This document shows positions 363 through 33,938 of a DNA stretch of 33,938 nucleotides, piece by piece. Made by a program: the position numbers and the translations under genes. This DNA is from Macrostomum lignano (lineage: Eukaryota), in contig NIVC01004832.1 of NCBI GenBank assembly GCA_002269645.1, positions 1 to 33,938 of the forward strand, given 5' to 3'. The stretch's first letter is position 1. Each line of letters starts with the position of its first letter. Under the pieces are notes generated by a model. It did not search any database. It was not told the origin of the DNA and saw nothing but the letters and a program-made list of their open reading frames with translations.

Positions 363-3300
363 CTGCACCGGCACGCGTCGCTTCCCGTGAGGAAGCGCAA
401 GAAGCGCCGCTTATTATCCTCGTCCAGATCCTGGTGAAACACCGACCAGAAGTTGGCGATGAGCTGCTGGTAATCCGGGCTGGGGTTCAACGTAGATGGC
501 CCCCTGCTCCAGCTGGTCCCAGTCGAAGCAGCCGCTCTCGCCATTGATGATCGCCTGCAGCTCCTGCGGCTCCAGCAGCGGCAGCACCGGGCTGCCGCAG
601 GCGCGCTCGAATCCTGCCTGAAAAGCATCGAAGGCGTCGCGACAGCTGCGGTTCAGCACGAAGTCCACATAGGCGGACACGTAGGACTCTCGGTTGCCAA
701 GGGTGACGCGGTCCTCCGGACTAGCCGACAGCGGCACGCGCTGCACGTGGTCGAACATTTTGGTCTCGATCTCGAAGTTCAACTCGAGTTCTTCCACTGA
801 GTTCGCCGTCTCCGCATCAAGCAGCGACTGCAGGCTGTTCCCCACGGTCGGGTCGAGCTCTTTGAGGTCGTCAAGAGCAACCGGCTGTCGCAGAAGCTTC
901 TAAGAGAGCCATCGGGAACGGCACAGCGGCCAGGATGCTGTTGTAGATTGCCAGGCCCAGCAGTGTTCCGATGAGGCTGAAGTTCTCGGGGCACTCCAGC
1001 GTGCTGTGGTTGAACCAGACAAGATTCGAGTCAAAGCAAGTGAACATGCCGTACACGGGGTCAAGGATCTGGCGAAAGATCAACAGAAAGAATTCTTTTG
1101 TTAGGCCACCCTCGTCAACGGCTTCTTCGCCCTTGAAGGTGATCCGAAGCGGCTTCTTCAGCTCGGCCGGGTGGCAGCTGCTGAGGCTGACTACTGCATC
1201 CTGGATCAAGGCCTGCCGCGCCACCCGCAGCACTAGGAAGGGGCTACGCATGTCAAAGATTGCGCCGAACGTAAAACCCTGAAATAGGTTAAACATCATC
1301 GCCTCGCGAAAGGCCTGCTCCATCTGCATCCGAGCGTCAACCTTCAGCAGCTCCATCTTGGCGTGACCGTCGAACACGAATGGATATTTGAGAAAGCTAA
1401 ACTGGTTCCGGTTTTCCGTCCAGGCGCGGTAGTCCTTCTCCAGGGGCACCCGGTCGCGGATTTCCGCGAGGTGAAACGAAGATGCGGGCAGGCGATCGCG
1501 TCGGTCACTGTTGAGGGCGTGCAATCGCTTCAGAAAGTCCAGGCACGGTCGGAGACGCCGGATCCGCTGCTCGTCTGCGTCGACTTTTGCAGCCTCATTT
1601 GCCTCACCATTGGCGTCGCAGTCGCTGGACACGAGCAGGTGCTGAGCAGCCCGGATCAGGCAGCGCACCAGGCGGGCAAAGTGGCGAAGCCGGAGCTCCA
1701 TGATCCAACTCAGCAGGACAGTCATCAGAGGTCGCGGTAGCCGGAGCACCAGCTCTGCCAAAGCCGGCTGCAGCGGTCCCGGTGACTCGAACTCCGGACT
1801 GAGCGGCAGAAGCAGCAACAGACGAAGGCATTCGGCGTCTGCCAGGTGGGCTTCTTCGCGTTCTGTCAAGTCCGTTAGAAGCTCGGTCTGCGCCGCCAGC
1901 AGCTCCTGGCGTCTCTCCGGGTTACTGACCGCAGCTGCGCCCAGCCGTTTCTGCAGAAACTCGGCCGCTGCGTCGAGGTCGAGGCCATGCCAGCCCGGCC
2001 GAGGATTCTCGTGTTCAATATCGGGGAGCAGGAAGGCGCGGGCGTAGGCAGCGGGACACGCGGCGATGGCCAAACAGCCCGGCCAGTCGCCGTCGGATCG
2101 CACGAGTCGAGCGACAAAAGGCCCTCCGGGATGGATAACTTTGCGGCCATCGGAGGCCCGCCGACTCGTAAGAATGCACGCCCACCGCCAGCGGAAACAT
2201 CAACGTCACCTGCACCGCCTGGGCCCAGGGTCAACGGCCAGGGTTTATTGCGGACGCTAGCTGAGGGACCAACAGTACCAAATGCGTAAACCCGGCCTCC
2301 TTGACAGCTGGCGTACGTGACTGAGGTGCCGCAGTCGGCGGTTACCACCCGAGAGCCCATCAGCTCCGCAACCTGTCGCGGTAGCGACTCGCTGGAGTTG
2401 CTTCCGTGGCCCAGCTGCCCGAGGTCGCCGGCGCCAAATGTAAAGAGGCCGCCATCAGCAGTGACGGCAGCGGTGTGCTCGTGCCCGCAGGCAATCCGAC
2501 GCACCCGTCGGTTGCGCAGGGCGGAGCACTCGACTGGTAGCGGCCGGCTAGCATTTCCGTCCTCGGTGCCGCATCCGAGCTGGCCGCGGTCATTGGAGCC
2601 CCAGGCCAGAAGGACAGCGCTGTGCGACAATACAAAGCTGTGCCGCCCACCGCAAGCGATCTGGCGGACTGGCAGACCGCCAAGGCGGCGCACTGGCGCC
2701 AGTCCGGAGCCGGTCTGACAGTGGCCGCGGCCCAGCTGGCCATGCGAGTTGTCGCCGAACGCAAATACCTGGTGGTCTGCGGTGAGCACCAAGCTGTGGC
2801 CGCCTCCAGCAGCCACCAAAACCGCCCGGTGACCCATCAGGGGGGTCACCGGCCCTACTCTGAGCGAGCCACCGCCGCCTGACCCATCGTCCGCTCTGGG
2901 GCCCAGTTGGCCGCAGGAGTTGCTGCCCCACGCTAAGACCTGGCCTTCCGAAGTCAGCGCCAGCGAGTGCCGTCCACCGGCCTCCAGCTGCGTCACTCGA
3001 CTCGACGTTGCCAGCGACTTGGCGAGACCCGGCACTGGCGCGAACTCTTCGTCCTCGCCGTCGCCACTGCGGGACAGTGCGCTGCCGTCAGATGTCAAGA
3101 GCAGACAGTGACTGTCACCAGCTGCCACTGTGAGAACAGCAGCCGCCAATGTCGGTTTCAGGGCCACTTCGGTTGGCAGAGCCTGCCACGAGGTACGCGA
3201 GTCGTTAGCCGGGGACTTGGAGAGCGGCTCGCCAACCATCAGAAGCTTCGGTGTAGAATGCTGAGGTTCGCTTGTCCTGATGCTCTGCTTGGGAGCTGGC

Positions 3301-3431
3301 GGTTTTTTCCGGGTTGGCTGCTGATCAGAGAGTTTGCCACCACTCTGCTGCGTTGACTTTGGCAGTAGTTTCCGCGAATCAGTTTGCTGTAGCAGTGGCT
3401 GCTTCGGGCGAGCCTTCTCGGCGCTGTCCAT
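363..3431 (-). CDS. HERC4: Small HERC E3 ubiquitin ligase (HERC3/4-like): low-complexity N-terminus, RCC1 repeats, middle helical region, HECT domain. One ~3 kb exon; final exon is off-window. Four apparent single-base frameshifts.
   Basis: RCC1 motifs (VAAGGGHSLVLT, IACGHEHTAAVTADGGLFTFGAGDLGQLGHG). HECT motifs (LKKPLRITFKGEEAVDEGGLTKEFF, LLGLAIYN, LDDLKELDPTVGNSLQSLL, RFLRFLTGSD-R-VP). Frames join after 1-nt shifts near 2100, 900, 482-485 and 378. GTGAG donor at 362-358. Symbol is family-level only. Confidence 0.88.
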
Positions 3432-4978: not shown

Positions 4979-5004
4979 ACATTGCTCAATAGCCCGCAGC
5001 CTAC

Positions 5005-5775: not shown

Positions 5776-5813
5776 TTGGTTTATCAAAGATCCGAATTTC
5801 GTCGCAGACTTAC

Positions 5814-8927: not shown

Positions 8928-8979
8928 AAGGCGTTGCGTCAGGGCGGCCGCACCTATCCAGCAATTAGTAATATTATTA

Positions 8980-9644
8980 CGAGGGGTGTCCCCGAAAAGT
9001 TCTGACACTTTTAATTCCAGAGCAAAAACAGTCGCAACTGCAAGCACAACTTTGGTGTCATTTTAAAGCGGCACATCTCTGCTTTCCACTGAATTAAGTC
9101 GCGTGTATTTTGGTCATTTCATTCAAAAGTTACGTGTCTTAGAGTAAAAGTTAAAAAATATAAAAGTCGATTTTTTGTGTTCAAAGAAACGAATTGTAGT
9201 CATTCATCATTATCATCCTTCAAGGCAGCCTTGTCAACGTAGTCTCCACCTGTAGCAACACACTTTTCACATCGCTTGAGCATTCCGTGCCTTCGGCCTT
9301 TCAAATGCACACTCATGATGGTGTCAAAAATCACAAAAATCAAAACACTTGACCTTTGCAAGGTGCAAAACAGTGAGATTTGCTTACAAGTGACGGAGTG
9401 TATAAAATACTCAACACAGAAATGGTGGACGGTAAGAGAGGGATGCACTGTAAATTAGAGCCGTTTTGTGTACGCTCGTAAACGATTGTACTTGCGTGCT
9501 GCAAACAAGATCCATAAAAAGCTATGTACTTCACCTTTTACTCCTGTAAGACTATCTGCAGCATTTTGATGGTTTTTCACACACAATTTTTGAATGAAAT
9601 GACCAATATACACGCGACTTAATTCATGACATGGGCACCCCTAG
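8980..9644 (-). mobile_element. Non-autonomous Tc1/mariner deletion derivative
   Basis: TA on both sides. Termini are CGAGGGGTGTCCC and (reverse complement) CTAGGGGTGCCC. A ~38-bp inner inverted repeat lies at ~9090-9128/9588-9626. The minus strand at 9230-9274 encodes RCEKCVATGGDYVDK, resembling the mariner transposase C-terminus (RWxKCVxxxGDYVEK). Confidence 0.8.
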
Positions 9645-9864
9645 TATATTATCTTTAATGTATTATTCTATTCTTTTTCATTTATATGATCCTACTGCTC
9701 AACTTCCCTCAACCGAATGCATTCAACGACACCACAGTGATCGCTAGCCAATGGCAGGCCTCCCGCACCTGACTAACAACATCACCCCCAATTAGGCAGC
9801 TTCTGAGTCCTGGTTCTCAGGGCGGGAGGGATTAAGATCGCTACGTCCCGTGGTTGAGTCTCAC

Positions 9865-10080
9865 CTGAGACCGGTAGGAGTTGAACAGCGCGGCCACCTT
9901 TCTGGTGTCAACAGACAGCCGCTCGTCATATTTGGCGGGGCTGCTGTAATAATCGTCCACTGCTGCATCCAGGCGCCAGGCATTCTGGCTGAGGCACTGC
10001 AGCGCCACCGGCTCCTGCGCCTCTGTGCACTGCACGAACCGCTGCACGAGCTCACGCTGTTCTCGCCGTAGTCGGTTCAT
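9865..10080 (-). CDS. DCUN1D1: DCN1-like protein, exon 1 (UBA-like domain); the four exons join to ~253 aa
   Basis: MNRLRREQRELVQRF...CLSQNAWRLDAAVDDYY parallels DCUN1D1/2 MNKLK...CLSQNDWKLDVATDNFF. GTGAGA donor, phase 0 compatible with exon 2. Confidence 0.92.
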
Positions 10081-10739
10081 GCGCCAGATTGCACCGGATG
10101 TCAACTAATCTAGCTTTTGTTTTTGTTTGTAAAAGTACATTTCAATAACAACTAGCTAATTACTTTCTTTGTTGTCGATCAATTTTAAAGACTAGGGCAT
10201 AAAATAGTTCTAAATGCTAGTTATATTAGTTAAATTGTTTAAAACACAATTGAGTCACAATTTCATTTTGTGCTCAAGCATATACCTTGCACATGTTTAA
10301 TTTTTGTATAGAACACACATTGACTTTGCACAGTTTTTATTAGAATTCAGGTTGCCATTTACCACAAGTGCCCAAAAATTGAGGTGAATTTTTTTCAAGT
10401 TAAATGTAGCATTAAAACAAATTTTGCAAACCGAACTTATGTTAAAAGTGCAAAGCAAAATTAAAGGCTAACAAACTATGATATTATTCCTTTTTTATCT
10501 ATCAAAGAATATAATCAAAATGCATGCTAAAACTTTAATGTTTCTCTTCATATATAATTTGCAATAGATTAAACTAATAGATTGGCTCAACCAATTTCTA
10601 CCAAACTTACATTGTTAGTTAGAGATTTATTTGAATTTTGTTTTTTGGCCATGAGAATGCTTATTGCTAAGGGAGATTAACCATTCAATGCTAAAGATGA
10701 TCTATTCTATACTACAAGCAAATTTTAATATCTCTCCTA

Positions 10740-16399: not shown

Positions 16400-17400
16400 A
16401 ATAAACGTCAACAAAAACATAAAAAGTAAACTTTGGTAAATTCTAGCCAACGCATTTCATCAAACATAAGACGTCGTCAGGGCAAATTCAATCAACCTAA
16501 GATCACACCACCAATGTATTTAAGCAAAATCACTGTACAGTCCAGAGGCGGGTCAACACAGTCCGGTAGAATTTAGAAAATGCCAAGTACACAACAAAGT
16601 GAGAGAGAAAAAAAAATAATAAATAGGCATAGCTCTGCTCACAGTACTCTTAGCTTACGCTCCACCCCATTGCTAGCAAGCTGCACATTCAGGTTGGGTT
16701 TGTGCATTCTGATATATGAAGCTTCGATAATCTTAAGCTGGTGGTCAAATTTGCACCCATCCAGCACTTTAAAGAGCTGAATCGGTTCACCGTCACAGCA
16801 TTTTTTACAAACAAGCAGATGGTCATTAATCGCAGAGCTTTTTAGCCAATGTTCCCTAGCTCTAGTGTGCAGGTGTCGCTTCGTTTTTCCAATGTAGGAA
16901 ATGCTCTGATCCTCAGAGCAGCGAAATTGGTAAACAACACCAGCCCTTAGAGCAAGTGGAACAGCTGACTTGAGCCTGCTAGCATAGCAACCAATCTTTT
17001 CGGTGCGAAACACAATCCTAACGGTGCACTTAAGCCATTTGCTAAACATTTTCTCAAGTTTTTTCTTAAAGTCAAGTGAAGCGTTGCCAAAAAATAGGAG
17101 AACCAACAGAGCGTCCCAAGAATCTATCTCCGGTTGCCTGGGTCTCGCATTGCTAGAAACTTTCTTAGTGACAAATGCATTGATAATACGGCTGACAAAA
17201 CTAAGAGGGTAACCGTTAGATCTAAGGATTTTAGTCAGGGCACAAACCTCTTGGTAAAATAAACTCCAAGAACTGCTCACCTCGTAGGCTCCATGAAGAA
17301 GGCACCTAACTAACCCGGATTTCCAGTGAGTTGGACATAAAGCATGAAAACTTAACATCAGCCCAGTAAATGTCGGTTTACGGTAAACTTTCATAAGAGG
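16400..17400 (-). mobile_element. 5'-truncated Penelope-like retroelement (RT thumb/C-terminus + GIY-YIG endonuclease; ORF 16639-17394) with 3' pLTR region
   Basis: VYRKPTFTG...LRSNGYP (PLE RT C-terminus) followed by GVVYQFRC...SYIGKTKRHLHTRAREH...IIEASYI...KPNLN (GIY-YIG). Boundaries approximate. Confidence 0.9.
16440..16489 (-). ncRNA. Minimal type I hammerhead ribozyme, probably decayed, in the PLE 3' region
   Basis: Minus strand reads GAAUUUGCC-CUGACGA-C-GUC-uuauguuu-GAU-GAAA-UGCGUU-GGCUAGAAUUU: catalytic core, 3-bp stem II, near-palindromic stem III and stem I GCC/GGC. Confidence 0.6.
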
Positions 17401-17717
17401 ACAGTGTCCAGAACAGAAAGAAATGTTATGATTTCTTCTCTAGTGGAAGACAATGAGCGAAGACCTCTTAATAACTGCTCTCTAAACAAAGTTTCTTATT
17501 TCATGTTGTCATAACATTATTTTTTTATTTTCAAGCTTGAAGCATCGCTTCTTTAGCTTATGGCTAGGTGTATGTGCGACTGAGTCGTCTATGGCCACAC
17601 CCAACAGAAGTGTCTTCCCCATACTGCTAATGGTATCCTATTGCAGCCAATGGCCATTTTCAACTATCTAGCATCTGTGCATTTAGCACAGATTGGTCTT
17701 TAGCTATATAGGCACAG

Positions 17718-19515: not shown

Positions 19516-20674
19516 ATGTTATCACAAGACTCGCAGTATGGAACTGTTAATGGAGCTCAAGGTTCTTCTGATGCTGCCATTGATCGTGTAAGCTCATAAA
19601 TCATAATGAGAGATTAACAAGATTTGTAGTTGGCATGGGGGTTGTAGCCTAGTGGTCAGAGCATTGGACTCATGACTTGAAGGTTGGGTGTTCGATTCCC
19701 GAATCCCACTGGAGCAATTTGTGTCCTTGAGCAAGACACTTAACTCTGCATTGCTTCGGTTCACCCAGCTGTAAAATGGGTGCCAGCATTAGCGTGTGTG
19801 TGGCGACCGTCAGACAGCTGCGTCTGAGCTGTTGGTTGCACATCTGCCCATTGAGGCAGGTGTAATCAATTATTATTATTATTAGTTGGTATGCTCTTGT
19901 CAAAGTAAAAATGAAACTTAATAGTATAAAAAAAGTTATTTGCTTTAAAGCATTGTATTTTGGTATTACAGTATACTTATGGTACTTTCCATGACACCAA
20001 ATTGCATTATTTTTATTTTAGATCGTTTGTGACATGCCCGGTACCTCACACAGTTCAGCTGCCAGAGATGAGTAAGTTTACCTGCCATTTTTATTGACTA
20101 AAGTTTGAAAATGCATATGTTATTTATTATGTCTGACAGTCACAGAACCCTATGGGATAGAGAAAGAATGTTCTACAGTCCCATTAAGAATGCCCGATTC
20201 GTTTGCAGCGCCGATGCAGAGCCGGGTCCCGTGCCCAACATGAGCTTCAGCTATCAGGTCAGAACACACCGTACTCCGGCTCCATCGCGGCTGGATGTGA
20301 TCAAAGCGCCACTGCTCAAATACGGTCCTAGGTGAGTAAACTTTACAGCTTCTTTTAGTCGACTAAGGCTTGATTTGAATCGAACAGCAACGTCTTGTAT
20401 ACTGAAATCTTAATTTCTAGCTGGCTGTCCCATCCTGAGATCCAGCATCACTGTCGCCTCATTCTGCTTTCGTCGTTTTTCTGCACCTTTGGCGTTGGTA
20501 AGCTTTATAATGTTTGTGTATTTGTTTTACTTCTAATGTCATTTCTTTCATCTCCTCTCCGTCTGGCTCACGCAGTGCTGCTGATAGTCGGCGTGTACAT
20601 CCTGAGCGCGCCGCCGCATCCGAATTTCAGCGCCATCTTCATTGTTGGCGGAGTGATCATCTTCATTCCCGGCA
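19516..20674 (+). CDS. TMEM134: TMEM134-like membrane protein, exons 19516-19587, 20022-20071, 20140-20331, 20421-20497, 20576-20674; last exon not in window
   Basis: All junctions are GT-AG with compatible phases (0,2,2,1,1). The spliced SWLSHPEIQHHCRLILLSSFFCTFGVVLLIVGVYILSAPPHPNFSAIFIVGGVIIFIPG aligns to TMEM134 W.QHPLI.KN.RVVLASF...LG.VLILVG...SAIF.VPG.LLLVPG. The start codon and first two exons are less certain. Confidence 0.75.
19637..19883 (+). mobile_element. Full-length tRNA-derived CORE-SINE (family B) in TMEM134 intron 1
   Basis: A box TAGCCTAGTGGTC, B box GTTCGATTCC. The central TGTGTCCTTGAGCAAGACACTTAACT...CTGTAAAATGGG resembles the MIR CORE domain. (ATT)n tail. TSD TAGTTGGCAT / TAGTTGGTAT. 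Confidence 0.88.
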
Positions 20675-21226
20675 GTGAGATTCTGACTGCTAATTTTGGC
20701 AGTAGTATAGGAAAAGTAGGTTTGAGCGCAACCCATTTTGAAAAATCACAAAAAACAGATAAAAATCGACTAAAAACAGGTGAAAATTGTCTGAAAACAG
20801 TGATTTTAGTGATTTTTCAAAAGTTTCGAAAAATTGCTTTTTGCGCGATTTCGTGAGTAAAACCACAAGAAATTTTTGATTCGTGGGTTAAAATAACCTA
20901 TTTTCATGTTTCATCATTTCAAAACTAGCATCAAATTTAATAATAGTCTTTTCTCCCATTGCATAACGCCCTTCAATAAGCCAATCTTACTAGCTTTGCT
21001 TTTAACGATCAGTCAGCTACCATCTATGCATAAAAATTGTCCACTCGAGGCATACAATGCTTTTACAAAAGTCAATAATTTGCTCCTGCACATTCGCTTT
21101 GTCCCGAGGCTTTGAAATGGCTTTAATGTTGTTCTAGATTTGTACTTAAAGATAATAGAAGACATTCAAGAACATGGAGCGCTAATTTAAATTTTTCGTG
21201 GCATGCATACTCGACTACTAGAGCAC

Positions 21227-21780
21227 TAACCGCAGCACTCAACATTTCTATTGGCTGCCAAAATTTCTGCCAAAACCAAAATTTTTGCCAAAATTTCTGC
21301 CAAAAAGTGTTTGGTTTTGGCATCCAATAGGAGTGGCTCGTGCAAATCTTTTGTGTTCACCCTCTATCTAGCTGTAAAAAAAGACATGAAGTGGGCCACG
21401 CAAGTTACAAACGAACAATGCTCTCGCGACCCTACCTACGGACGATTTCACTAACCCTTTTCTAAATTATGTATCTTAAAAATGGAACAAATAGCAGGAG
21501 AAATTCTCCTCAAAGCAATTTTTATATTGTGACTCAGCTTTAACGTCGTGCGAAACCCACACTGAGTGAAGCGTATGGTCAAATAGGCTCTCGCAGGAAC
21601 TCACCAAACTAACTATACATAACCGCAGCACTGAACATTGCTATTGGCTGCCAAAATTTCTGCCAAATCTTGCGACCAAAATTTCTGCCAAAAAAGTTTT
21701 GGTTTTGGCAACCAATAGGAGCGTCTCATGCTAGTCTATTGTGTTCACCCCCTTTCTAAAAAGACACGAAGCGCACCACG
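21227..21780 (+). repeat. Two ~160-175 bp direct repeats (21227-21400, 21620-21780), each with a 16-bp inverted repeat enclosing GCCAAAA iterons
   Basis: Both copies begin TAACCGCAGCACT. Arms CTATTGGCTGCCAAAA and TTTTGGCA(T/A)CCAATAG occur at 21248-21330 and 21641-21718. Confidence 0.9.
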
Positions 21781-21790
21781 TTACAGAATC

Positions 21791-21958
21791 ATGCAAGATA
21801 AGAGACTATACAATAGGCGAACCACTAGAGTATAATGGAGAAGGTCTTTTTTGATACTATAAGCACCATATCAAACTTAGTAAAAGACAAATCTACCTTT
21901 CATAGAACAGGCAGGTGCAGCAGCAGGCTCTATTGCTACAGCAGTTAACGCAGCCTAA
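21791..21958 (+). pseudogene. Small frameshifted ORF, probable amphipathic core peptide
   Basis: Joining frames gives ...NGEGLFDTISTISNLVKD-LPFIEQAGAAAGSIATAVNAA*, resembling the EGEGIGDMISGVTNFL segment of the 23303 ORF. Needs about three indel corrections. Confidence 0.4.
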
Positions 21959-21991
21959 GTCTGTAGATTACTTAAATTTATTTTTATAAAA

Positions 21992-23349
21992 ATGGCCTTC
22001 AGTAAACCATTATTTCTAGGTTCTGCATTGGATATTCAGTCAGCTATAACAAAACTACCACCCATCTTCGCCACTGGAAAATATCCTGGCGAATTTCATA
22101 TTCCAGGGTATTCTTTCACTGGCCCAGGTACAAATTTAGACAAGAGACTCAATCCAATTACAGACTGGCCTCGGTATGTAGTCTACCAATTAATCCAATT
22201 GATTGGACTGCTTACTATCATGACAAAAGCTATAGAGATGCTGAAAAGACGTCTTCAACTCCAGAGGAAGCCCTAGCAAAGAAGCATATTGCTGATGAAA
22301 AAATGATAGCTGATTTAGATGCTATTCCAACCAGCGACTTGTCGGTAAAGGAGAGACTCATTAGAAATCTAGTAAAGCGTATTATCAATGCTAAAGTTCG
22401 GTTTGGATTAGGAATTCATACTCACAACCCCAACAATTGTATAGACTGTCTAACAATTTATGGTAAGGGTCTTAGCTATGAAGATGCAGTAAAATTGCAT
22501 AGGGAATACAGAAAGCCAAGAGTATTTAGAAAAATGATTCACTATGCAAAAGACACAATTTGGCATGCAGATATCATTATCCTACCGCCCGAAAGAGGTT
22601 ACAAATATGCTCTCACTATCATAGATGGTTTTACACGTTACGCCTGGGCAGTTCCTTTGAAAACAAAGACGGGAGCGGAAGTTGCAGAAGCTTTCCAAAA
22701 AGTATTTAAGGAATCAGGAAGACGATCAGAGAGACTTTGTGTAGATGAAGGCAAGGAGTTTTATAATCAGCATATGTACAAGCTATACTCGTTTTCAAAA
22801 GACAACATTAGAAAGAAGGATGAAAGGGGTGAATATATTAACAAGATGTTTTCAATTTATGGCGAGTCCAAGAATGCAATGATTGAGAGGTTCAATCGTA
22901 CTCTCACAAATAAACTCTGGTTTGAATTTGATCTACAGGGTAATCAGAAGTGGCTCCACACATTGCCAGCTATTGTTGAAAAATACAACAACACAATCCA
23001 TTCTGAGATTCTGATAACTCCTTCAGAAGCATCTAAACATCCTGAGCGAGTACCAAAGCCAACTTTCGAGTATTCAAATGAGAAACCAAACTTCAAAGTA
23101 GGTGACAAAGTTCATATCTATAGATATAAGGAGCACTTTGAAAAGGGTCGAAGAGGATATTGGAAAATTTCAGAAGTGTTTAGGATAAAGAAAATAGTTT
23201 ACTCCAATCCCATAACCTACATTATTGAGGATGAGAATGGAGAAGAAATCATTGGATCATTTTACAAATCCCAGCTTCTACCAGCAAATTTTTCAACTAA
23301 AAATGAGCGCCTATCGAACAAACTGCAAACGGGCGAAAGGTCAGATTGA
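21992..23349 (+). CDS. Parvovirus-like phospholipase A2 (PLA2X) domain joined to a retroviral-type (rve) integrase; one frameshift near 22170
   Basis: GYSFTGPGTNLDKRL (Ca-binding loop, frame 2), then LPINPIDWTAYYHDKSY (catalytic HD, frame 1). Frame 1 stays open into WHADII...IIDGFTRYAWAVPLK...VDEGKEFYN...IERFNRTL (DDE) and the C-terminal FKVGDKV...SFYKSQL. Confidence 0.88.
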
Positions 23350-23725
23350 AACGTCTGATTCACAACTACTAGCTGATAAAGAGGGTGAAGGAATTGGTGA
23401 TATGATCAGTGGTGTCACAAACTTTTTATCAAATCATGGAAGTAAAATTGTGAGTGGAGCTGATGCAATAGGTAAAACAGCTACCACAGCGAAGAACATA
23501 TTCGATGCGAAGAAATCATACAGTGACATGTCTAAAGCAGGTGAGGAACTGGAATATATTAAAAAGAAACGTAGAGATAAAGAAGCAAAGAAAAGAATGG
23601 AAGAAGAGCAACAGATAGCTTCTCAATCAAATAAGGCTATTCAAGATATTGTTAAAAAGGCTCTAGGAACAGCAGAACAGTCTCAAGTGTCTTTGAGACA
23701 AGGCAATGGTTTGAAGAAATTCTGA
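23303..23725 (+). CDS. Basic, amphipathic putative virion core / membrane-active protein
   Basis: ATG in TAAAAATG context. EGEG then the amphipathic IGDMISGVTNFLSNHGSKIV, a K/R/E-rich coil and a C-terminal QGNGL. Confidence 0.7.
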   Translation: MSAYRTNCKRAKGQIETSDSQLLADKEGEGIGDMISGVTNFLSNHGSKIVSGADAIGKTATTAKNIFDAKKSYSDMSKAGEELEYIKKKRRDKEAKKRMEEEQQIASQSNKAIQDIVKKALGTAEQSQVSLRQGNGLKKF

Positions 23726-23733
23726 CCTTAAAA

Positions 23734-24186
23734 ATGAGCGAGAAAAACACTGAAGCAAGACTCAATCGATATGTTCGAGAGGGAAAACCAAGATATGTTA
23801 CTGTAAATAAGCAAAAGCAATATCTTTCTAAAGAGAAGATTCGAGAATTGCAAGAGAAACAGAAAGAACATGAAGGTGGAATAATTCCTCTATTAGGCTT
23901 ACTACCAGCAATATTGGGTGGTATCGGAGCAGCCTCCGGAGTTGGTACAATGATTGCAAAAAGTGTTAATACAGCCAACAATGCTAAGCATAATAAGACA
24001 ATAGAAAGCATTGAACGACAAAAACTAGAAGAGTTGAAAAAGGCTCAAGGGAGTGGAGTGTTAGTTGATGCGGCTAAAAGAGTCGAACAAGTACCCAGCG
24101 AAGCAGTCAAGTGGCTGCTAAAGACTTTTAAAGTTGAAAAGGAGAAACAGGGTAATGGGATAATTCTTAGACCTCACGAAGCTTAG
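23734..24186 (+). CDS. Putative membrane-lytic core protein (adenovirus pVI/pX-like role inferred)
   Basis: Basic N-terminus, then GGIIPLLGLLPAILGGIGAASGVGTMIAKSVNTANNAKHN, matching the GG-hydrophobic-AKAV..A...RHN pattern common in Polinton small proteins. Confidence 0.75.
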   Translation: MSEKNTEARLNRYVREGKPRYVTVNKQKQYLSKEKIRELQEKQKEHEGGIIPLLGLLPAILGGIGAASGVGTMIAKSVNTANNAKHNKTIESIERQKLEELKKAQGSGVLVDAAKRVEQVPSEAVKWLLKTFKVEKEKQGNGIILRPHEA

Positions 24187-24206
24187 TTGAAATTTCTCGT
24201 ATAAAA

Positions 24207-25572
24207 ATGGAGAACAAAAAGGATATACTGAACCTATATGAGGACAAAACTTTTAGCTTTTTCAAAAAGAAAGAAGACTATATTAAGATTTCTCCAACAC
24301 CAGGTAGCACTAATAATCTCAATGTTGCAGGAGGTCAAATAGTTCATGAAGTCAATTCAACAGAGTCATACATTCTCATGTCAGAGGCATTCGGTTGTAT
24401 AAAATACTCAATAACACAAAGAGATAAACACCGACTTGAATACGAACATTACTCTAGAACATAATTGGCCTATGAGACTTTTCTCTCAACTCATAGTTGA
24501 CATTGGAGGAACAAAGAAAGTCTATAATGATCCTGGAGAGTATGACACAATCTTAAAGTCCGTAATGTACTCAAAATTGATGAATGAAGTTGGAGAAGCA
24601 TACGGATGGATTCCAGACACTGGAGATGCTGGGACTGTTTCTGATATAGCTCTAGCAAACAACGCAGATGCTGAAGCTGTGAGAACTGCAGCAATCGCTA
24701 TGAAAAATAGACTCAATAAGAAGGATTCGAATACTGGATACATTAGGAGGCTTGAAAATTATAACAATGTCACTAATGCTCCAAACAGAGGTGGAACAAT
24801 CAAACTATCATTAACACCCCTCATTGGGTTCCTTGATTGGCAGAAGATTAGCAAAGGAATTAAATATAAATTCACATGGACAAGAAAGACTAACGATGCT
24901 GAAATTTTCTTTGGAGCTGCCGGGACGGAAGCTAAGTTAACTATTAATAGCTTTGAGATTTGGATCCCTGCTATTACTTTGTCACCCAGTGCTGAAGCAG
25001 CTTTTCTAAAATCACTCAACAAGGACATTACAGTATCATTTCCAGAGAGGGTAACGGTTCCGCCACAACTCATTCAAGGAAGTCCATATACATGGAACAT
25101 AGCCAACATCTCCAATATGCCACTTGCAATCTTTGTAGCTTTCAAATATGACGTAAACAACCCATCATATATAGTTAATGATCACAAGTATGTGTCTTAC
25201 AAAACTGGAGCAAATGCAGTGAAAATAACCCAGCTTCAAGTCAGATTAAATCAGGTGATGTATCCGAATGATTATGTTGAAATTGATCCAGTAGCTCAAG
25301 ACATTCACAGAGCATATGAAATGTACGAGGACATCTGCAGCCGTTTCGGTGTAACTCCACCATTCAATAAACAAGACTTTCTAACAATCTATCCAATATT
25401 CTGCTTTGATCTAACAGCTCAGGATGAGTTTCTTGTCAAGAGTGGAGTGAATATTCAATTATTTATCAAGAAGTCAACTAATGTTGAGCTGACTGCTTTT
25501 GCACTAATTCTTGAACAAACAAAGAATGTAATAAAAGTTACCAGTGAATATCAAATGACCCGCGTCGAATAA
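24207..25572 (+). CDS. Major capsid protein (double jelly-roll, hexon-like); one frameshift near 24420
   Basis: ORFs 24207-24464 and 24436-25572 join to ~455 aa. Polinton MCP-style motifs: LFSQLIVDIGG, WIPDTG, LTINSFEIWIP, ITQLQVRLNQVMYP, YPIFCFDLT. Confidence 0.85.
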
Positions 25573-25593
25573 GGTCATTTTTTCTTTTTTTAA

Positions 25594-26367
25594 ATGCCCA
25601 AAGTAAAATTTCGGCATGATCCTATTTTCCCTAATCCTCTTTTATGTTGTATTATCGGCGCTACAAATACGGGTAAAACATATTTACTATTCCATATTCT
25701 TACAAGTCCTGAAAAACTAGTTGACTTTAATGAGTTAGTTTTATATGTTCCCAGAGCATCTCAAATGGATCCAGAGTATCAGTTTCTAAAATATGGCTTT
25801 GAAAATGGTCTCCCACCTTCTCTTATCAACTCACTCTATCATGTCTACCAGGTGAGTGAGGATGCATCTCCTGAAGATATTAGACATATTTGTCGAGAGG
25901 CAGCCAACCCTGGTCGAGTGCAAAGCACATCAGAAAATTCAGAAGTAATAGAGAAAATTCCTGTCACTCTTTCCCATACTCCAAATGAAGAAATTTTTCA
26001 TAATGGACTAAAGACATGTGTGATATTGGATGATGTTTTGGGAGAGGCTAATCAAACATTTCAGGAAAGTCTGTTTCAGAGAGGCAGGCATGGAAACTGT
26101 TGTGGTTTTTATCTAGCTCAAAATTTTACCAAACTAGATCGCAATACTGTCAGGGAGAATACGACATGTTACATAATCTTTAAACAAAAAGATACAAACT
26201 TAAATCACATTGCTAGAAATATAGAAACGAATTATGAACCCGCTATATTCAAGGCTAAATGTAGAGAGGCTTGGAAAAAGAAGTATGGCTATATCTATAT
26301 AAATACAAGAGCTGATGAGGATGAGCAAGATTTGTATAAGGATGTTCTAACTAAAATCCCATTGTAA
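25594..26367 (+). CDS. A32/FtsK-like DNA packaging ATPase
   Basis: Walker A IIGATNTGKT, Walker B VILDD, and the RGRHGNC...LAQ...VREN arginine-finger region. Confidence 0.93.
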   Translation: MPKVKFRHDPIFPNPLLCCIIGATNTGKTYLLFHILTSPEKLVDFNELVLYVPRASQMDPEYQFLKYGFENGLPPSLINSLYHVYQVSEDASPEDIRHICREAANPGRVQSTSENSEVIEKIPVTLSHTPNEEIFHNGLKTCVILDDVLGEANQTFQESLFQRGRHGNCCGFYLAQNFTKLDRNTVRENTTCYIIFKQKDTNLNHIARNIETNYEPAIFKAKCREAWKKKYGYIYINTRADEDEQDLYKDVLTKIPL

Positions 26368-26369
26368 AA

Positions 26370-27100
26370 ATGACTAATGAATATATAAGAGAACTCATTA
26401 ATTTAGCAAAGCAGCGAGAAATGTACAAATCCAGAAATGATGCTCAACGCTATTTGAAAATTGGAGAAGAGAGTTTATATGCAAGAGTGGCTCCATTAGC
26501 TCAAAAACCTGTCACAGAAAAGCTCGATGAATTTATTGATGTCAATGCCAACCTTGTTGATAAACTTCAGAATCAAAAAGTTCCAGTTCCGCAATCAAGT
26601 ACACCAAAAGGCCGATTTGAACCCCTAGAAGTATTTGACAAAATAATTGAAGAAATTGGAAAGATTCCAATAACTCAAAGACCAGCGCCTAGTATACGGA
26701 TTCAAAAAACTGATGCTGGATATATATTTGGATCATCTGTAATAGATGTTGAATTCCATGAACAAGGTCGAGACATCATTGTCAACGAATTTCGAATGCC
26801 ATTTTCTGAAGATCTTGAAGAGTTGTTCAAAATGCCTAAAGTAACTGAAAATGGTGAAGAGCTGAAGCAATTCAAGATGCAAACATTGCAGGATTATGTT
26901 AACCTCATTGAACATTGTAAAAATCCAGCGGCCAAATCAAGTGGGAATTATAAGCAAGCAGTAAGGATATTGAAAGATAATCCACCAGGATATCGAGTAA
27001 AACCGGGATCTGGACTCAGTGAAAGAGTGTTGACATTACTAGCCGCAAAAGCAGAGGACATAACAATGTTGATAAAGAGCTAGCAGAATTACTTGCTTAA
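26370..27100 (+). CDS. Conserved Polinton protein of unknown function (PZ-like); probable frameshift near 27055
   Basis: N-terminal YLKIGEE...KPVTEKL pattern. Adding one G gives the C-terminus PGSGLSERVLTLLAAKAGGHNNVDKELAELLA*, whose TAA abuts the next AAATG. Confidence 0.6.
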
Positions 27101-27102
27101 AA

Positions 27103-27892
27103 ATGGAAAAAGAAATAGAAAAAGTCAACATCCTCTTGAGTAAAAAGTTTCAACGCACATTTGACTTCTTTTCAATTAAAAACCCATTTCGACAAACTCT
27201 AGGCACTCCGATAAATTTGTATGAAGATCGAGAATACGAAGCTGGTATAAAAAAGTTTGCAGTCTTTGATGCTATTAACAATATTGAAGGAGGCAATAAT
27301 GAGTTGCGATACTCGAGGGATAGTGGTAGAACATGGAAAAAATAAAGATTCAAGCAGGGATCTTGGGAAGTTAAAAGTCTGTCAAGCGAGATTCAAAGAT
27401 TGCTAACAGCTGCAAATGATTGGAAAGAGGGGGCTATTGTTTTCAGTGCAAGCCTAGACACGCGTAGAGTTGAGTTACGGTTAGCCACAGATTATCAAGT
27501 TGATTTCAGGGATGCACATTCCAATAACTTTAGAAGACTGTTGGGATTCAATTCGGAAGTGTATTTGAAACCATTTGAGAGAGCTCCAAATCCAGCTCGG
27601 ATAGACGGAGCTAGAAGTGCGATCATGGTTCGTTGTCTAAATACAAAGGGGGTTTATCACTGATCCAGCTAATGGAAATCATTTAATTGATAAGCAAATA
27701 CTTCTTTCAATTCCATCGTTCTCTGTCCCAATGGGAAGTAAAATTATTCAAGAGCCCGCAAATCCTGTGTACCTACCACTAACTACAAACATGTTGAGCA
27801 CATTCGACTTTGTCATCGAAGATGAGTCTGGTGTTCTATACGACTTTGATGGCGAGGAAATATTTATAAATCTTCACATACGACAAATATGA
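27103..27892 (+). CDS. Minor capsid protein (penton-like single jelly-roll); breaks near 27340-27355 and 27650
   Basis: NNIEGGNNELRYS...TWKK-I-GSW...LLGF, with C-terminal EPANPVYLPL...FVIEDESGVLYDFDGEEIFINLHIRQI*, the typical Polinton penton ending. Confidence 0.82.
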
Positions 27893-27901
27893 GTGTTAAA
27901 A

Positions 27902-28332
27902 ATGAGCGAAGCTGAGACATGGAATGCATTTAAACAAAAGTTTGGGACTGACACTACGACTAATATTGATCTGATAATTGGGCAAAATATCTCAAGTTAA
28001 AACCATTTCGCTATGCCATGAGAGATGAAATTGTTGATTTACCACAGTATGGTTACTTTATGACAAATATTCACACTTCGAAAGAACGGGGTATACATCA
28101 TTCAGCTATATTTTCAGCTCCTGATAAGGTTTATTTTTTTGATTCCTATGCACTACCGCCCACACTGGAAATTATGGAAAAGTTTAATCACACAAAGAAT
28201 AGAATATGTGGAGACATGGAAGAACAAATTCAAACTTTTGATAAGAAATATTGTGGTCAAATGTCGCTGTACTTTTTACACCGAATCGATAAAGGAGATA
28301 GCTATAACGAAATTTTGCAGCAATTAAAATGA
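27902..28332 (+). CDS. Adenain-like cysteine maturation protease; one frameshift near 27980
   Basis: TNIDL-NWAKYLKL...MTNIHTSKERGIHHSAI (His), YFFDSY (Asp), QIQ...YCGQMSLYFL (oxyanion Gln, Cys). Confidence 0.88.
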
Positions 28333-29707
28333 GTTACAAGAATACTGCCAATCAATTTGGTTACTCGTCAAATTCAAATGATATAGCACCTGGTATAACA
28401 ATAGCGTTAGCTGATGAGCGATACATCAATGAAAATGAAGTATATAAGAGAGAGGAAATAGATAATTTATTGTTAGCAAAGAGAAATGTTTCAGACTCTT
28501 ATTCAAAGGAAGATAGTGACGCAATGAATATCACCATGCTACAATTAATTGACGATGCTCATGGGCGCGTAAACAATGTCTACACAAAAACCGAAACTGA
28601 CACTAAGATGTATTCTAAAACTGAGATTGACACTAAGATGTATTCTAAAACTGAGATTGACACTTTGTTAGCAGAATGGCAAGGTACTGCGGGAGGTACA
28701 GAGAGTTCGAAATTAGTCAATATTCTTTCATTACTGACTTCAAACGCTTCCCATTCTGACATGAAAGTGACCGCTTCTCATAACTCTTCAGCAGCATATC
28801 ATGTTGCAGATTCAAACCCAGCTTCAGATTGGAGCAGTGCAGATGACTCAGACAAGTGGATACGATTTCAATTTTTGAAAAGAGCTAGGAAAGTTGTAGA
28901 GATAAAGTTGGAAGGAGAGGTGTGGCCTGGTTGGTCTGTTAGTGTGAGCCTAAATGGAACAAACTGGACACCTGTTGAACAAAGTGCACCCATTGAACTA
29001 CGAAGGGCAATGCACATCTTAGGAAAAAAATACCCAATCCCTCATATTATTTCCATTATTCTCTTAATTTTTCTGGTTCCGTAAAGCTTACAAAAGTTGA
29101 ATTACTTGAGAGACAAACAGTGGTTAATGATTTAGTGTGGCCTATAGATAGACTTCAAGCTGTACCAAAGCTATACGTAGACAATGCACTTGAATCAGTG
29201 GAGCTGCGACTAAGGCGGGGACTAGGTTTCAAATCTTATACAGGATATATTCCCTCACTAGCAACACGTCAAAACTATAGAGAAAGGGGTTTCAATGTAG
29301 CGTCATCAGGAGCATTTGAAACGTCAGATAATTGGGGTTATATAGTATCTAATTCAGAATGGGCATCGAGGAATGAACCCAATTCTTACATTGAAGTACA
29401 ACTTCCCGAGTCTATTCAAATTTGGAAATTCGGATTGAAAGGAACCAAAGCAGTAGGTAGTGAAATTATAAAAAATCAACCAAAAAGTTTTATTCTGAAA
29501 GGGAGCAATAACAAGAGAGACTTTAGGAATATTTTTTCTACCGAAAACGCTGGTTTAGTTCCTGGAGTCATGAAATATTTTGAAGTAGCTTCCACCGAAA
29601 AATTCTCTGTTTATAGAGTGCATATTAATTCAGCCACTGAAGGATCAACCGTTCTTATTGTTTCAGGCTTTCAACTTTATCCGATTTTAGACATAATCGC
29701 CACATAA
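28329..29707 (+). CDS. Fiber/receptor-binding-like protein: YxKxEID repeats plus two F5/8 type C (discoidin/CBM32-like) domains; one -1 shift at A7 29024-29030
   Basis: Three 30-bp repeats YTKTETDTKM/YSKTEIDTKM/YSKTEIDTLL. Domain 1: VTAS...W...WIRFQF...SVSLNGTNWT. Domain 2: SS...W...YIEVQLP...FILKGSN...YRVHI...FQLY. The -1 frame from 29024 is open into ORF 29120-29707. Confidence 0.7.
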
Positions 29708-29709
29708 AA

Positions 29710-30450
29710 ATGAATGAAAAAAATGAACACATCTATCCTGTGGTTGAGCTGCATGAAGCAGATTTGAGGGAGCGGGACTATTTCAATCAGAGAAAGGGTG
29801 AAATCAAAGGCAGTATTGAATGCATTACTAAAGATCTTACAATTTATAGCAAAAAGGTAAAAAAGTACAAACGGCAAAGTAGCAGGATAAATTGGATCAA
29901 CATTGTGACAGGAAATGTAAGTCTCTTGGCTGCTACAGGAATTGGCATAGCAACATCGATACTGACATTGAATCCCTTAGTTATTGGAGTAGTAATCGGG
30001 GCAATGAGTGGTTTTGAAGCTGTAAAATCCACGTCGTTGTTTGCAACTGTGAAAATGCATTGCCAAAAGCAGAAGGCAAAATACATTTTTCTCAGAGATC
30101 TGGCAAATCAATACAGAGAGAGATTGTATATTTACTCCCAAAAAGCAGTTGATGATTATAGATTAACTCTTGAAGAGGTTCAAGCAGCTGCTGCAATTTA
30201 TTCAGAATACAGAGAAAAAAGAGATCAATTGTTAGACGCCTGTGTTGCGCCTGAAGAAGTTAACCATTCGGAAGTCGTTGATAAAATCCTCAAAGAGAGT
30301 AGACTTGGTCATTCAGCGAAGGAAAAAATTAAAAAGGAATTACTAGAAAAAGATCTGAGAGAAAAATTGGGTCTAGCTGATAAGCCAAAAGAGTACTCGG
30401 CAACACTCAATCTTCAATCAAATGCTCCAAGTGCACCTCCCTACAATTAA
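29710..30450 (+). CDS. Polinton coiled-coil/transmembrane protein (possibly the family annotated GasderminX in adintoviruses) with C-terminal PSAP
   Basis: IYP start, KKYKR before a long hydrophobic Gly-rich segment (VTGNVSLLAATGIGIATSILTLNPLVIGVVIGAMSG), then SQKAVDD..LTLEE. Ends NAPSAPPYN*. Confidence 0.7.
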   Translation: MNEKNEHIYPVVELHEADLRERDYFNQRKGEIKGSIECITKDLTIYSKKVKKYKRQSSRINWINIVTGNVSLLAATGIGIATSILTLNPLVIGVVIGAMSGFEAVKSTSLFATVKMHCQKQKAKYIFLRDLANQYRERLYIYSQKAVDDYRLTLEEVQAAAAIYSEYREKRDQLLDACVAPEEVNHSEVVDKILKESRLGHSAKEKIKKELLEKDLREKLGLADKPKEYSATLNLQSNAPSAPPYN

Positions 30451-30475
30451 TATTGTATAATTTTTTTTCTAGAAA

Positions 30476-30781
30476 ATGGCTGCAATAAAAGTTCTCCTAA
30501 ATGCATACCAAGATGAAATAAAGCGCATTGATAGAGAAATACAAATAAATAACTTTAGGGAGGTGCGTACACATTGTGGAATAATAGAACCGGATTATGG
30601 ATATATTGATAAATTAAGTGATCGCAAATGTTTTCTTGAAACTGCTATTGTTTTTGCAGAAGCATTTATTGAAGATGAAATCGACAAGTTAGTTAAAAAA
30701 ATAAAAGAGATCAGGAAGTATGTTGAGTTTAATGATCAGCGCAAGAAACTTCTTAAGCAATTGAATTGTTTGGTTTTTTAA
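30476..30781 (+). CDS. Hypothetical protein (101 aa, helical)
   Basis: Clean ORF with AAAATG start, packed between the neighbouring genes. No recognised motif. Confidence 0.55.
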   Translation: MAAIKVLLNAYQDEIKRIDREIQINNFREVRTHCGIIEPDYGYIDKLSDRKCFLETAIVFAEAFIEDEIDKLVKKIKEIRKYVEFNDQRKKLLKQLNCLVF

Positions 30782-30783
30782 AC

Positions 30784-33700
30784 TTATTTGAATCCATGAG
30801 GATGTGTTATAATTCCATTGGATTCAATGTATCTTTTGTCATCGAAAGGACTAATAGCCTTCTTATTTTGTTCTATTAAAGTCATGTTATGCTTGTCTGA
30901 TCTAAGGCTATACACTTTCCTATAGACTGGTTCGTTATAATCAAGTAGTATATTTCTATAGTCATCATATTGTACATGATGCTTCACTGTTGACTTTGAG
31001 ATTCCCTTTAATTTTTTCTCTTCCTTCCCTTCCTTTTGAGTGCTGACATAAACTGTTTTAAATGAATATGCTTTCGATCTTAGAGCGGTTACTTCTGTCA
31101 TTATGCAATCATATTTTGCCAATTCATCCTTGAATGTTCCCAGCTTTCCACAATTATTCATATCATGTAAATCAATCGGAAAATTTTTAGTATACAGCGA
31201 CAAATCGAAATGCTCCTTCATCTGAGCAATGTCTTTATAAATATTTTCTGTCTTTATATGAAGAATGAATGAGTCGGTGTCAGAGGTAACAATCTCAACA
31301 TTATCCCCCCATTTGGACTTGAAAACTTTGTAAAATGTTTCATACATATGCAATTTCGAGAGATCCAGAATTGCTTGTCCAGCGTATGTTGGCTTTGTTC
31401 CAAGAGGGATATTCTTAGGTCGCTGGTGAATGCAAATTAGATTTTCATTGAAGATTTTGAAGTCTATGAAATCTGGCTTGGATATTATCTTAGATATCTC
31501 ATCCTCACTTGTCAGCAACTCAAATCGCTTTCTCTTTTTAACATCCTCCATTGTCTTGCCAAAGATGCTTACATTAAGCATTTTGAACTGATTGTCTTCG
31601 AACTCAATTTTTGCTTCTTTTGCCTTCTTTCTTTCTATCGTATTAAACTCGATATACTCCTTTAACCATGGCTTTTCATTGAATGAAATCGTCCTATGTA
31701 CTTTTGTCACTTTCAAGCCCATCTCTTCATAGAATCGCAATAGCTTATGATGTACGATATATTTTGTTTTATTTTTTAAATTAAGGATCAATTTAGGAAC
31801 TTTTCCAATCTTTTTCATTTCGACTTCTAGACATCCTTTCTGATATTCACTCAATTCACTTTCTGACACAGTTGTACTTTCAGGTGCTAATGGGAAGGCA
31901 TACGTTTTCTTTTTTGATTCTTTTGTATATTCAAGATCACATTCAACAAGACAGCCCCGTCCTTCAGGAGGATTTTTATAATAGTTGGAATCAGCTTCCC
32001 ATTTAAAGTCAGAAAAAGGAAGGGGTTCCAACATACTATAACCATAGAGATTTGTACAATCAACGTAAAGTAAGTAGGAAGTTGGTTTTTCTAAATCATA
32101 GCCTGGAAGATAAGGATTATTTGCCTTTACATATCGTGACCCTAGAACTCCGCTAAATCCACCTCTTATTCCACTATCAATCATATGAATCATATCGATA
32201 TCCGCCAGCAAGTCTAACTCAACTTTACTTTTCTTCAACCCAGCATTCCAACTCAATCCTGGTGCTGAGAAGCATCTGGCTGGATCAATCTCAAAGTGTT
32301 TCAGGAAGAATGTTCTATAGCGTTCGAATACATCTGCTAATAATAGAACGTCAACCTTAAGATACAGCATCATATAATCCTCCAAATTCTTACAATTAAA
32401 AGTTTTCCACATTTGTTTTGCAAAATCATATTCATCTGAAGAAATGTCTTCACCTTTCAACCTCGAGTAAAACTCTTTCAATGGTGGTAACTCAGTTTCT
32501 GCTAATCTTCCAAAGCTTCTGATATACTCATATGGGAATACACCCTTGCGCTTAACATATTGAAAATCGCTGTCGTTTTTAAAGTATTTCTTTGTTATGA
32601 TGAAGTCTTCATCCTTCAGGGACTTTGCGCAGATATCCAGCGAGGAAGCCAAGAACCTGTATGAATCTAGGAACCTCAGTACTACTTTGTTACATCCAAA
32701 CTCGAGAGAAATGTACTCTTCAGAAGTTTTAGATAGTGGAGGAAATAATTTATCCTCCATGGTCTCTTTGCTCTTTAAGTGTGTCACTAAGAAGTGAAAG
32801 TCATAGTGGGATCCATTCTGGAAGTAGATTGGGATTACTCGCTTCTTACTCTCGAGAGCATTGCAGGATTTACAGGCAGCCCCTCTATATTTGCCACTAT
32901 AGTGACAATGTTCTCTTACCTTACCTAGCTTAAGTGTAAAGTCATTTTTACAATTCGCACATTTTTCAGCCCTGTAAAACTCTTTCCATTGTTGCTTTGT
33001 GATCTTATATTTACTTATATTATTGCTCTTGTTCAGACATTTTTTGCACCAAGATTCTATAGTAACTTTACTGTCAATTTCCTTCACATGCACCTTCATA
33101 TCTGGAACCATATCAAACTCCTTCTCGCATATGTAGCATTGTTTAGCCTTACAGAAAGAAGCCTCCTCTTGCGATGTCAAATTATGATTAATATGCTTAG
33201 GCTCCTTCAGACCATTCTTAATTTGTTGATAAATTTCAACCATTCTATCAACATATTTTTCCTTGGCATCTGTGCCACAATATCCTTCATACTTCGATTT
33301 AATTACCTCGGGTAACTCAGAATGGATATAAAAACCGTAAGCTATTGCGTTCTGATTTGCTACTTTTAGAGTATATGACTCTTTGTCTAAAATCTTAGTG
33401 AAGCTTTTACTTTGTGCTTCAATGGGTTCAGTTGTTGCTTCAAAGTCAGCATAGATAGCGATGGGTAGCTTTAGTTTGAATATATGATTCTTAAATTTCA
33501 GCTTCGATTCTTCCTTAGGTAATTTATAAAGACCGGGTGCATTTTTACCGCACAACCTTGAGTGCTCGGCCAACACGTTTTCACTTGTGTAAACAGTCAT
33601 GCATGTTCTGCATAAAAATGACTTGTGATTTACACGCTTTCCAGTTTGTTTTGAAACTAATGTTGTAAGATTTTTTATCAGACAATAATGAGTCTTACCA

Positions 33701-33938
33701 TCTTCCTCCAGGTATAGTAAATCTACTACATAAGTTCGTTGATTATGAGGTGAGACATAGAGATGTTGTAGTGTATCTGGGAATTTACCTTCATAATACA
33801 GCACATTAACAGCAAACTCTTCATTTAGTCTTTCAAACTTTTTTATATCTTTTATTCTCATGGGAATTGGATATCGGTGAGATTAAGTTCTTTTCATATG
33901 GTTTATATTTTGACACTCGATAACCATCTTTATTTGTG
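30784..33938 (-). CDS. polB: Protein-primed family B DNA polymerase; N-terminus continues off-window via a frameshift near 33865
   Basis: Exo I IYADFE, Exo II NGSHYDFHF, Exo III YLKVDVLLLADVFE. Pol motifs YVDCTNLYG, KMLNVSIFGKT, SDTDS and KLKGI. Endonuclease VII-like REHCHYSGKYRGAACKSCN. Upstream KYKPYEKNL-LTDIQFPM joins after a 1-nt shift. Confidence 0.95.

Follow-up and report, generated by a model that had tools for sequence, protein, structure and literature searches.

A Polinton provirus with a phospholipase A2-integrase fusion in a host intron of the flatworm Macrostomum lignano

Polintons, or Mavericks (Polintoviricetes), are integrated, gene-dense elements that combine a DNA polymerase of family B that uses a protein primer (pPolB, here PolB), an rve integrase, an A32 packaging ATPase, a cysteine protease and a double-jelly-roll (DJR) capsid protein (general definition in PMC6431247). 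Many are on record: Jeong et al. (PMC10748475) report 266 nematode Polintons and, in Platyhelminthes, 748 pPolB1 loci and no pPolB2 locus, and insertions related to Orthopolintovirales are reported in Rhabditophora flatworms (10.1101/2025.04.19.649669). A 2021 abstract states that no extracellular form of Polintons had yet been detected (PMC7805220), and whether animal Polintons make infectious particles is a long-standing question. The element described here occupies positions 20701-33938 of a 33,938-nucleotide stretch of Macrostomum lignano DNA (GenBank assembly GCA_002269645.1, contig NIVC01004832.1, forward strand), called the window throughout. It represents the left-hand ~13 kb of one Polinton provirus sitting inside a host intron, and its identity as a Polinton is practically certain. 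In the preferred reading, to which a probability of about 0.6 is assigned, it is an integrated provirus of a family recently active in Macrostomum, and its frame breaks here stem mostly from sequence errors; the element is probably nearer to intact than its written sequence reads. It shares the genes named above with other Polintons, and differs in that the integrase is fused to a phospholipase A2 (PLA2), the capsid is divergent and the ends are outside view. Complete Polintons are common, surveys listing hundreds to thousands including flatworms, and this one is ordinary for its group; its interest rests on the tractable host and on the idea of a PLA2-integrase precursor. No paper on a Macrostomum Polinton was found in the literature and supplements searched.

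Close described systems include the adintoviruses, which Buck et al. define by an OTU-PolB, a hexon that BLASTp links reciprocally to the Mayetiola or Terrapene references and an integrase chromodomain (PMC11071296). With the Beta adintoviruses (Terrapene reference; PMC8502044, PMC11071296) the element shares a non-PF03175 PolB, an adenain, an FtsK-type ATPase, a hexon and candidate membrane-active proteins, and the best fold match of its PolB is an adintovirus PolB; the Beta-like class of the polymerase is consistent through the absence of PF03175, a family-level criterion rather than a direct comparison with the Terrapene PolB. Unlike the Beta adintoviruses, it lacks a C-terminal chromodomain in its integrase and has a PLA2, which the cited work ties to Alpha virion modules, while the PF03175-class PolB of the Alpha adintoviruses finds no match here at E<=0.05. 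The integrase reading frame stops about 20 residues past the SH3-like tail without chromodomain PF00385, which occurs in 15 of the 120 listed integrase homologues and in none of the best 71, and which is missing from many Maverick integrases (PMC5803895). Since the chromodomain is absent, the element is not filed under the adintoviruses. It is a Polinton only, adintovirus-like in its workings, with a Beta-like PolB and an Alpha-associated PLA2; the label "adintovirus-type" given by an earlier sequence-only reading of this DNA holds as functional likeness and fails as strict membership.

From 21992 to the end of the window twelve genes lie closely packed, eleven on the plus strand and one on the minus strand. 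The integrase, part of the fusion at 21992..23349 (+), has an rve domain (PF00665, E=2.6e-10) in which D, D and E are conserved. The DJR capsid gene (24207..25572, +) matches PF21738 (E=1.6e-13). The A32/FtsK-type packaging ATPase (25594..26367, +; PF04665, Pox_A32, E=1e-5) has Walker A, Walker B and GRH motifs and, among the core genes, is alone whole as written. The cysteine protease (27902..28332, +), of the adenain/Ulp1-like kind, has no Pfam match; it is recognised by its His, Asp and Gln/Cys motifs, by the codon-usage track and by its ESM features in the Atlas, which match Preplasmiviricota clusters bearing Peptidase_C5 at 0.96-0.97 (210-218 of 256 features), 15-62% of the members of these clusters carrying that domain. 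The putative penton, or minor capsid protein (27103..27892, +), is assigned by its size, its position and motifs that we take to be marks of Polinton pentons; no jelly-roll family was found in it in Pfam, and Pfam matches of its pieces to crystallin, BNR and uDENN fell below the cut-off and were dropped. The fibre-like protein (28329..29707, +) combines a shaft repeat of 30-nt period with two F5/8-C (galactose-binding-like) domains (Pfam E=5.8e-6 and 3.3e-3). Domain, feature or fold matches bear out the earlier inventory for the integrase, capsid, ATPase, protease, PolB and fibre-like protein, and leave the penton without tool support. The full virion module, which had been presented as notable, is found with the penton excepted, and to possess such a module is normal for Polintons. 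The catalytic motifs are present, as had been claimed, in the integrase (DDE), ATPase (Walker A/B and GRH), protease (His, Asp, Gln-Cys triad) and PolB (Exo I-III, Pol A-C), and also in PLA2 (HD).

The plus-strand genes have a common start context. TAAAA stands ahead of 8 of the 11 starts and ahead of none of 177 other ATGs, and TAAAAATG occurs 8 times compared with 0.75 in shuffles; one of the starts, at 23303, had been picked by the motif. No paper on the TAAAAATG motif was found in the literature searched. A TAAAAATG start at 21477-21535, upstream of the integrase gene, opens an open reading frame (ORF) of just ~16 codons, possibly a remnant gene or an upstream ORF.

GenBank holds a whole 454-residue capsid protein of M. 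lignano (BOX15_Mlig029656g2, here P0001) that differs from the present one at 4 residues, an identity of ~99% over aligned blocks. All 8 capsid homologues, of 8, read through without a break, and of 54 conserved columns one deviates, with the same deviation in P0001. Because only 8 proteins match at E<=0.001 and the second best is 63% identical, the capsid lineage is, judged by sequence comparison, a divergent one. The P0001 model has low confidence (pLDDT 61), but each of its 9 best VIA matches is a DJR capsid or scaffold protein (Z 8.5-11.5, rmsd 3.3-14.5, 152-302 residues aligned). Among the top 50 BFVD matches, all at 7-12% identity, are a single adintovirus entry and a single MELD virus, and none of the 50 is a close adintovirus hexon. 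A GTDB scan with the capsid alignment gave 25 pattern matches, none of them confirmed. The BOX15 tag is presumably that of the RNA-based M. lignano annotation. Since the GenBank gene models of this species were built from an RNA-based transcript assembly (PMC5730564), the sister capsid gene is probably transcribed. With a capsid gene that is whole and apparently transcribed, and a regenerating flatworm host that is easy to work with, this family is a good candidate in which to seek particles.

PolB (30784..33938, -) runs out of the window at its N-terminal end, and its homologues begin to align at the window edge at residues 105-334. At least ~185 N-terminal residues, the right terminus and the target duplication are outside the window, so that "near-complete", as the element had been called, claims too much. 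The TP-vOTU layout that places the OTU domain there is from PMC11161782. The PolB model (pLDDT 88) finds as its best fold match an adintovirus PolB (TMq 0.71, 20% identity, Foldseek E=3.6e-58) and also matches phi29 DNAP (Foldseek E=2.2e-16); its best BFVD matches are at 17-23% identity, and a PDB sequence search gave just one chance FYVE match. The motifs Exo I-III and Pol A-C are all present. PolB deviates at 7 of 118 conserved columns, and 24 of 53 homologues deviate as much or more; an apparently damaged motif B was ruled out, the odd residue being common to homologue P0131. PF03175 gives no match at E<=0.05 and is present in 1 of 12 homologues scanned. The protein also holds an endonuclease VII domain (PF02945, E=7.7e-8). 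An HNH/endonuclease VII insert is likewise found in nematode pPolB2 Polintons (Jeong 2023, PMC10748475), which differ from the present element in that no fusogen is seen here; this likeness is one of domain content. The insert is no unusual trait, being present in 10 of 12 close PolB homologues scanned.

Breaks in the reading frames of the element number 9-10 in ~11.95 kb (0.75-0.84 per kb) and affect 7 of its 12 genes, in agreement with the earlier count of about ten lesions with a single in-frame stop. Four were placed against natural homologues: one in PLA2 (~22165-22185, +), one in the capsid (~24426, +) and two frame switches in PolB (~33864 and ~33890, -). Four were placed by ORF layout and the codon-usage track: in the protease (~27975, +), the putative penton (~27650, +), the fibre (~29020-29060, +) and, weakly, the ORF at 26370 (~27050, +). 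The stop, at 27343 (+) in the putative penton, comes from ORF layout; the codon track dips there, the stop itself lowering the score, and the stop may be either a nonsense change or, as suggested earlier, the product of two indels that offset each other. The integrase ORF extends ~20 codons beyond the end of close homologues. The 1025 PolB codons emphasised earlier are indeed free of stops, but the two switches lie directly upstream of them, no more than 80 nt from where the window ends.

Most of these breaks are rather likely to be sequence errors, and part of the evidence comes from a host gene in the same window. The HERC (RCC1-HECT) gene at 377..3431 (-), identified by Pfam, has three frame breaks (~2094, ~901 and ~488) and no stop in 3.06 kb, and differs by 8 substitutions in 1019 residues from a whole 1081-residue M. 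lignano protein (BOX15_Mlig004553g1, P0279). The host gene, whole in P0279, therefore shows a break density like that of the element, as had been noted before. Random substitutions in these genes would give stops 5.5% of the time, and the finding of at most one stop among the 13 lesions of element and HERC has P <0.001-0.10 (0.001-0.2 for the element's 10 lesions alone), values that rest on indel:substitution ratios of 0.03-0.15 assumed by the analyst. The conserved sites of PolB, integrase and capsid are not eroded in the alignments; the integrase deviates at 7 of 57 conserved columns, every one shared with homologues. These observations favour errors over a copy that is truly decaying through real frameshifts while other copies of its family are whole and active, an alternative we consider unlikely: under decay, stops should not be so scarce, a host gene of which a whole version exists should not have an equal density of breaks, and conserved sites should be worn.

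Several observations weigh against sequence errors, and some of them speak for the decaying copy. A run of at least 4 lies within 6 nt of just 3 of the 7 precisely placed lesions, compared with 22.5% of 15-nt windows by chance; the homopolymer bias is weak, and the earlier statement that the lesions fall often in A/T/G runs is weakly borne out. The 3,075-nt PolB stretch is break-free (P=0.05 if breaks fall evenly), and a 2,585-nt satellite in the host DNA is near-clean, with no more than a single independent indel (P=0.11-0.36). As an error yardstick the satellite was set aside, since its two 49-nt units carry the same change at the same unit position and look like a copied variant. The ~0.9% amino-acid distance to the sister capsid also means that the two are not the same sequence. 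The M. lignano assembly holds 312 Mb of duplicated sequence (PMC5730564), so the HERC gene here could be a duplicate in decay, and P0001 could come from a homeologue of this one old insertion; duplicated genome regions relax selection. No near-identical whole sister was found for the integrase (best 75% among 120 listed of 401 matches) or for PolB (best 59% among 150 representatives listed, from a library with a single protein for each 50% cluster), and a whole sister is therefore known for the capsid only. The penton without tool support belongs on the same side, as do the terminal inverted repeats, the target duplication and the TP/OTU region, all outside view. Read or assembly error as the earlier explanation gains real support, short of proof, from the whole 99% capsid sister, the whole HERC reference and the scarcity of stops, and its homopolymer argument is weak.

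It is improbable that, in this species, all members of the family are dead or non-autonomous. The whole capsid ORF would then be a chance survivor or a homeologue, its RNA made by host read-through, which is possible since the plus-strand genes are in sense with the host intron; the want of a whole sister integrase or PolB among the matches listed would be expected. A dead family should, however, have accumulated more than 4 substitutions over 454 residues, all columns invariant in 7 homologues being kept save one that is shared with the sister, and the start-context motif should not be intact at most genes. It is less probable still that some of the breaks are programmed, either as ribosomal frameshifts or as boundaries of separate genes such as PLA2 and integrase or two fibre halves. 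Slippery sites have been proposed for some adintovirus pentons (PMC11071296), but the PLA2 break parts the Ca-loop from the catalytic HD within one domain, homologues P0010 and P0013-P0029 are continuous at that site, and the capsid is continuous in all eight homologues. Within the preferred reading of a recently active family with mostly erroneous breaks, the existence in the species of whole copies of all the element's genes is slightly favoured, and the formation of particles in vivo is doubtful. The earlier description of the element as young and possibly virion-competent finds indirect backing in a single sister capsid gene, whole and apparently transcribed.

The one under-described feature of the element is its PLA2-integrase fusion, whose start matches residue 1 of homologue P0010 and which consists of a parvovirus-type PLA2, a linker with GxG motifs and the rve core. 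The PLA2 gives a weak Pfam match divided over two frames. Alpha adintovirus PLA2X and the Sf Maverick CAP (PMC8502044, PMC5803895) likewise have a PLA2 of parvovirus-VP1 type that shows Ca-loop and HD motifs and is succeeded by a short tail containing Gly, but there PLA2 and integrase are separate genes; in the account of Starrett et al. (PMC8502044), PLA2X has a gene of its own and a pX-like tail. Here PLA2 and rve form one ORF, as they do in 60 of the 120 listed of 401 integrase matches, so that the fusion is widespread and not unique to this element. No description of it was found in the literature searched, including passages of PMC4642659, PMC3671162, PMC5803895, PMC11071296, PMC11131425 and 10.64898/2026.10.13.758929; the figure maps of Starrett et al. 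or bioRxiv supplements may show it.

The linker is marked by its GxG motifs, which are present in 47 of the 54 parsed fusion homologues (6 of the 60 were unparsed and are omitted, and the sequences are related rather than independent), in most cases 47-66 residues beyond the HD of PLA2. Their density is 56 in 5,468 linker residues compared with 2 in 12,950 residues elsewhere in these homologues. Within the window, GxG followed by L, I, V or F occurs in the fusion linker (2), in the ORFs at 23303 (2), 23734 (2) and 26370, in the fibre and in the ORF at 29710, where it falls in the hydrophobic stretch; it is absent from the capsid, ATPase, protease and 1025 PolB residues, the penton being left out of this count. 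The adenovirus protease cuts sites of G-x-G type with a hydrophobic P4. At the sites here P4 is mostly K/R, not hydrophobic as in adenovirus. The sharing of GxG by the linker and the small virion-type proteins suggests a packaged precursor processed by protease, and we tentatively propose, at a little under even odds, that the PLA2-integrase is such a precursor and is cut by the element's own enzyme. A fusion of this kind, whose putative cleavage site is conserved, would offer the integrase a concrete way to travel in the particle.

Direct support exists for the set of genes, their folds and motifs, the location in an intron and the map of breaks; the life cycle is drawn from known Polinton and adenovirus biology. 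By that analogy, the protein-primed PolB would copy a linear genome, and the A32 ATPase would load it into a DJR capsid that bears a penton and a fibre tipped with lectin. Maturation of the particle would be the work of the adenain-like protease, which would cut small core proteins at their GxG sites and would also separate PLA2 from the integrase at such a site; the endosome would be breached by PLA2 together with amphipathic peptides, and the integrase would insert the genome. A widespread Polinton lineage with a phospholipase-integrase polyprotein that is packaged and cut at GxG by the element's own protease, together with whole, transcribed, particle-forming copies in M. lignano, a transgenic lab animal, is in combination unlikely; if true, it would mean that a DNA virus follows a Gag-Pol logic like that of retroviruses, and would give a handle on animal Polinton virions.

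The remaining genes are all on the plus strand, and the ORFs at 23303, 23734, 26370 and 30476 have no family in Pfam or NCBIfam. The unbroken 140-residue basic ORF at 23303..23725 is a candidate small core or membrane-active protein. The unbroken 150-residue ORF at 23734..24186, with one Gly-rich hydrophobic segment (hydropathy 1.96 at residue 49), is a candidate membrane-lytic core protein, which we liken to Cupiennin or pVI. The ORF of ~240 residues at 26370..27100 has its single GxG near the C-terminus and no usable Atlas match; as candidates for GasderminX and Cupiennin, accessory genes of Beta adintoviruses, 26370 and 23734 have neither a family nor an Atlas match. The unbroken 246-residue ORF at 29710..30450 is a SLATT-like membrane protein by hydropathy and by a match to NCBIfam SLATT_1 (E=2.3e-4) that is below the cut-off. 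Its C-terminus (30420-30450) has a PSAP motif followed by PPY, an ending that resembles ESCRT late domains. The earlier mention of membrane-active proteins goes beyond these data, which are the weak PLA2 match, hydropathy and the sub-threshold SLATT match. An unbroken 101-residue ORF at 30476..30781, known from ORF layout, is convergent with PolB.

The left end of the element lies, as first proposed, at 20701, where it begins with AGTAGT; this start with its flank occurs once in the window. An AG-type terminus is typical of Polintons. No second terminus or partner inverted repeat for it is present within the window, the right end being beyond 33938. The host exon just to the left (20576..20674, +), TMEM230/134-like by Pfam (PF05915, E=8.3e-8 on its frame) and with limits set by splice signals, has its splice donor at 20675. 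Since this donor is 26 nt upstream of 20701, the insertion is intronic, and the last exon of the TMEM230/134-like gene would be beyond the element. The non-coding subterminal region (to 21990, +) contains a duplicated ~170-nt unit (21227-21400 and 21620-21780), in each copy of which a pair of inverted CCAAT boxes encloses GCCAAAA repeats; from its sequence the unit looks like a promoter or origin. An 11-mer across the host-element junction (20692-20702) is the exact reverse complement of a subterminal motif at 21255-21265 and 21648-21658. Three matches compare with 0.07 expected, in a comparison made post hoc, and they may reflect chance, a target preference or an element boundary a few bases further left.

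The left 20.7 kb of the window is host DNA, containing, in addition to the HERC and TMEM230/134-like genes, a DCN1-like gene, the satellite and a piece of a retroelement. The DCN1-like gene (4922-10104, -) has UBA_4 at 9844-10104 and Cullin_binding at 4922-5206, and carries a GC-rich array of 7/15/21-nt repeats at 5273-5776. The satellite (6343-8927), inside the same gene region, consists of 51.7 copies of a 50-nt unit with 98% matches. A GIY-YIG endonuclease ORF (16642-17439, -; E=2.2e-6) is probably a fragment of a Penelope-like retroelement. A dispersed repeat at 19640-19800 matches 4170-4235 in inverted orientation (95% over 66 nt), and its head looks, by eye, tRNA-derived and SINE-like.

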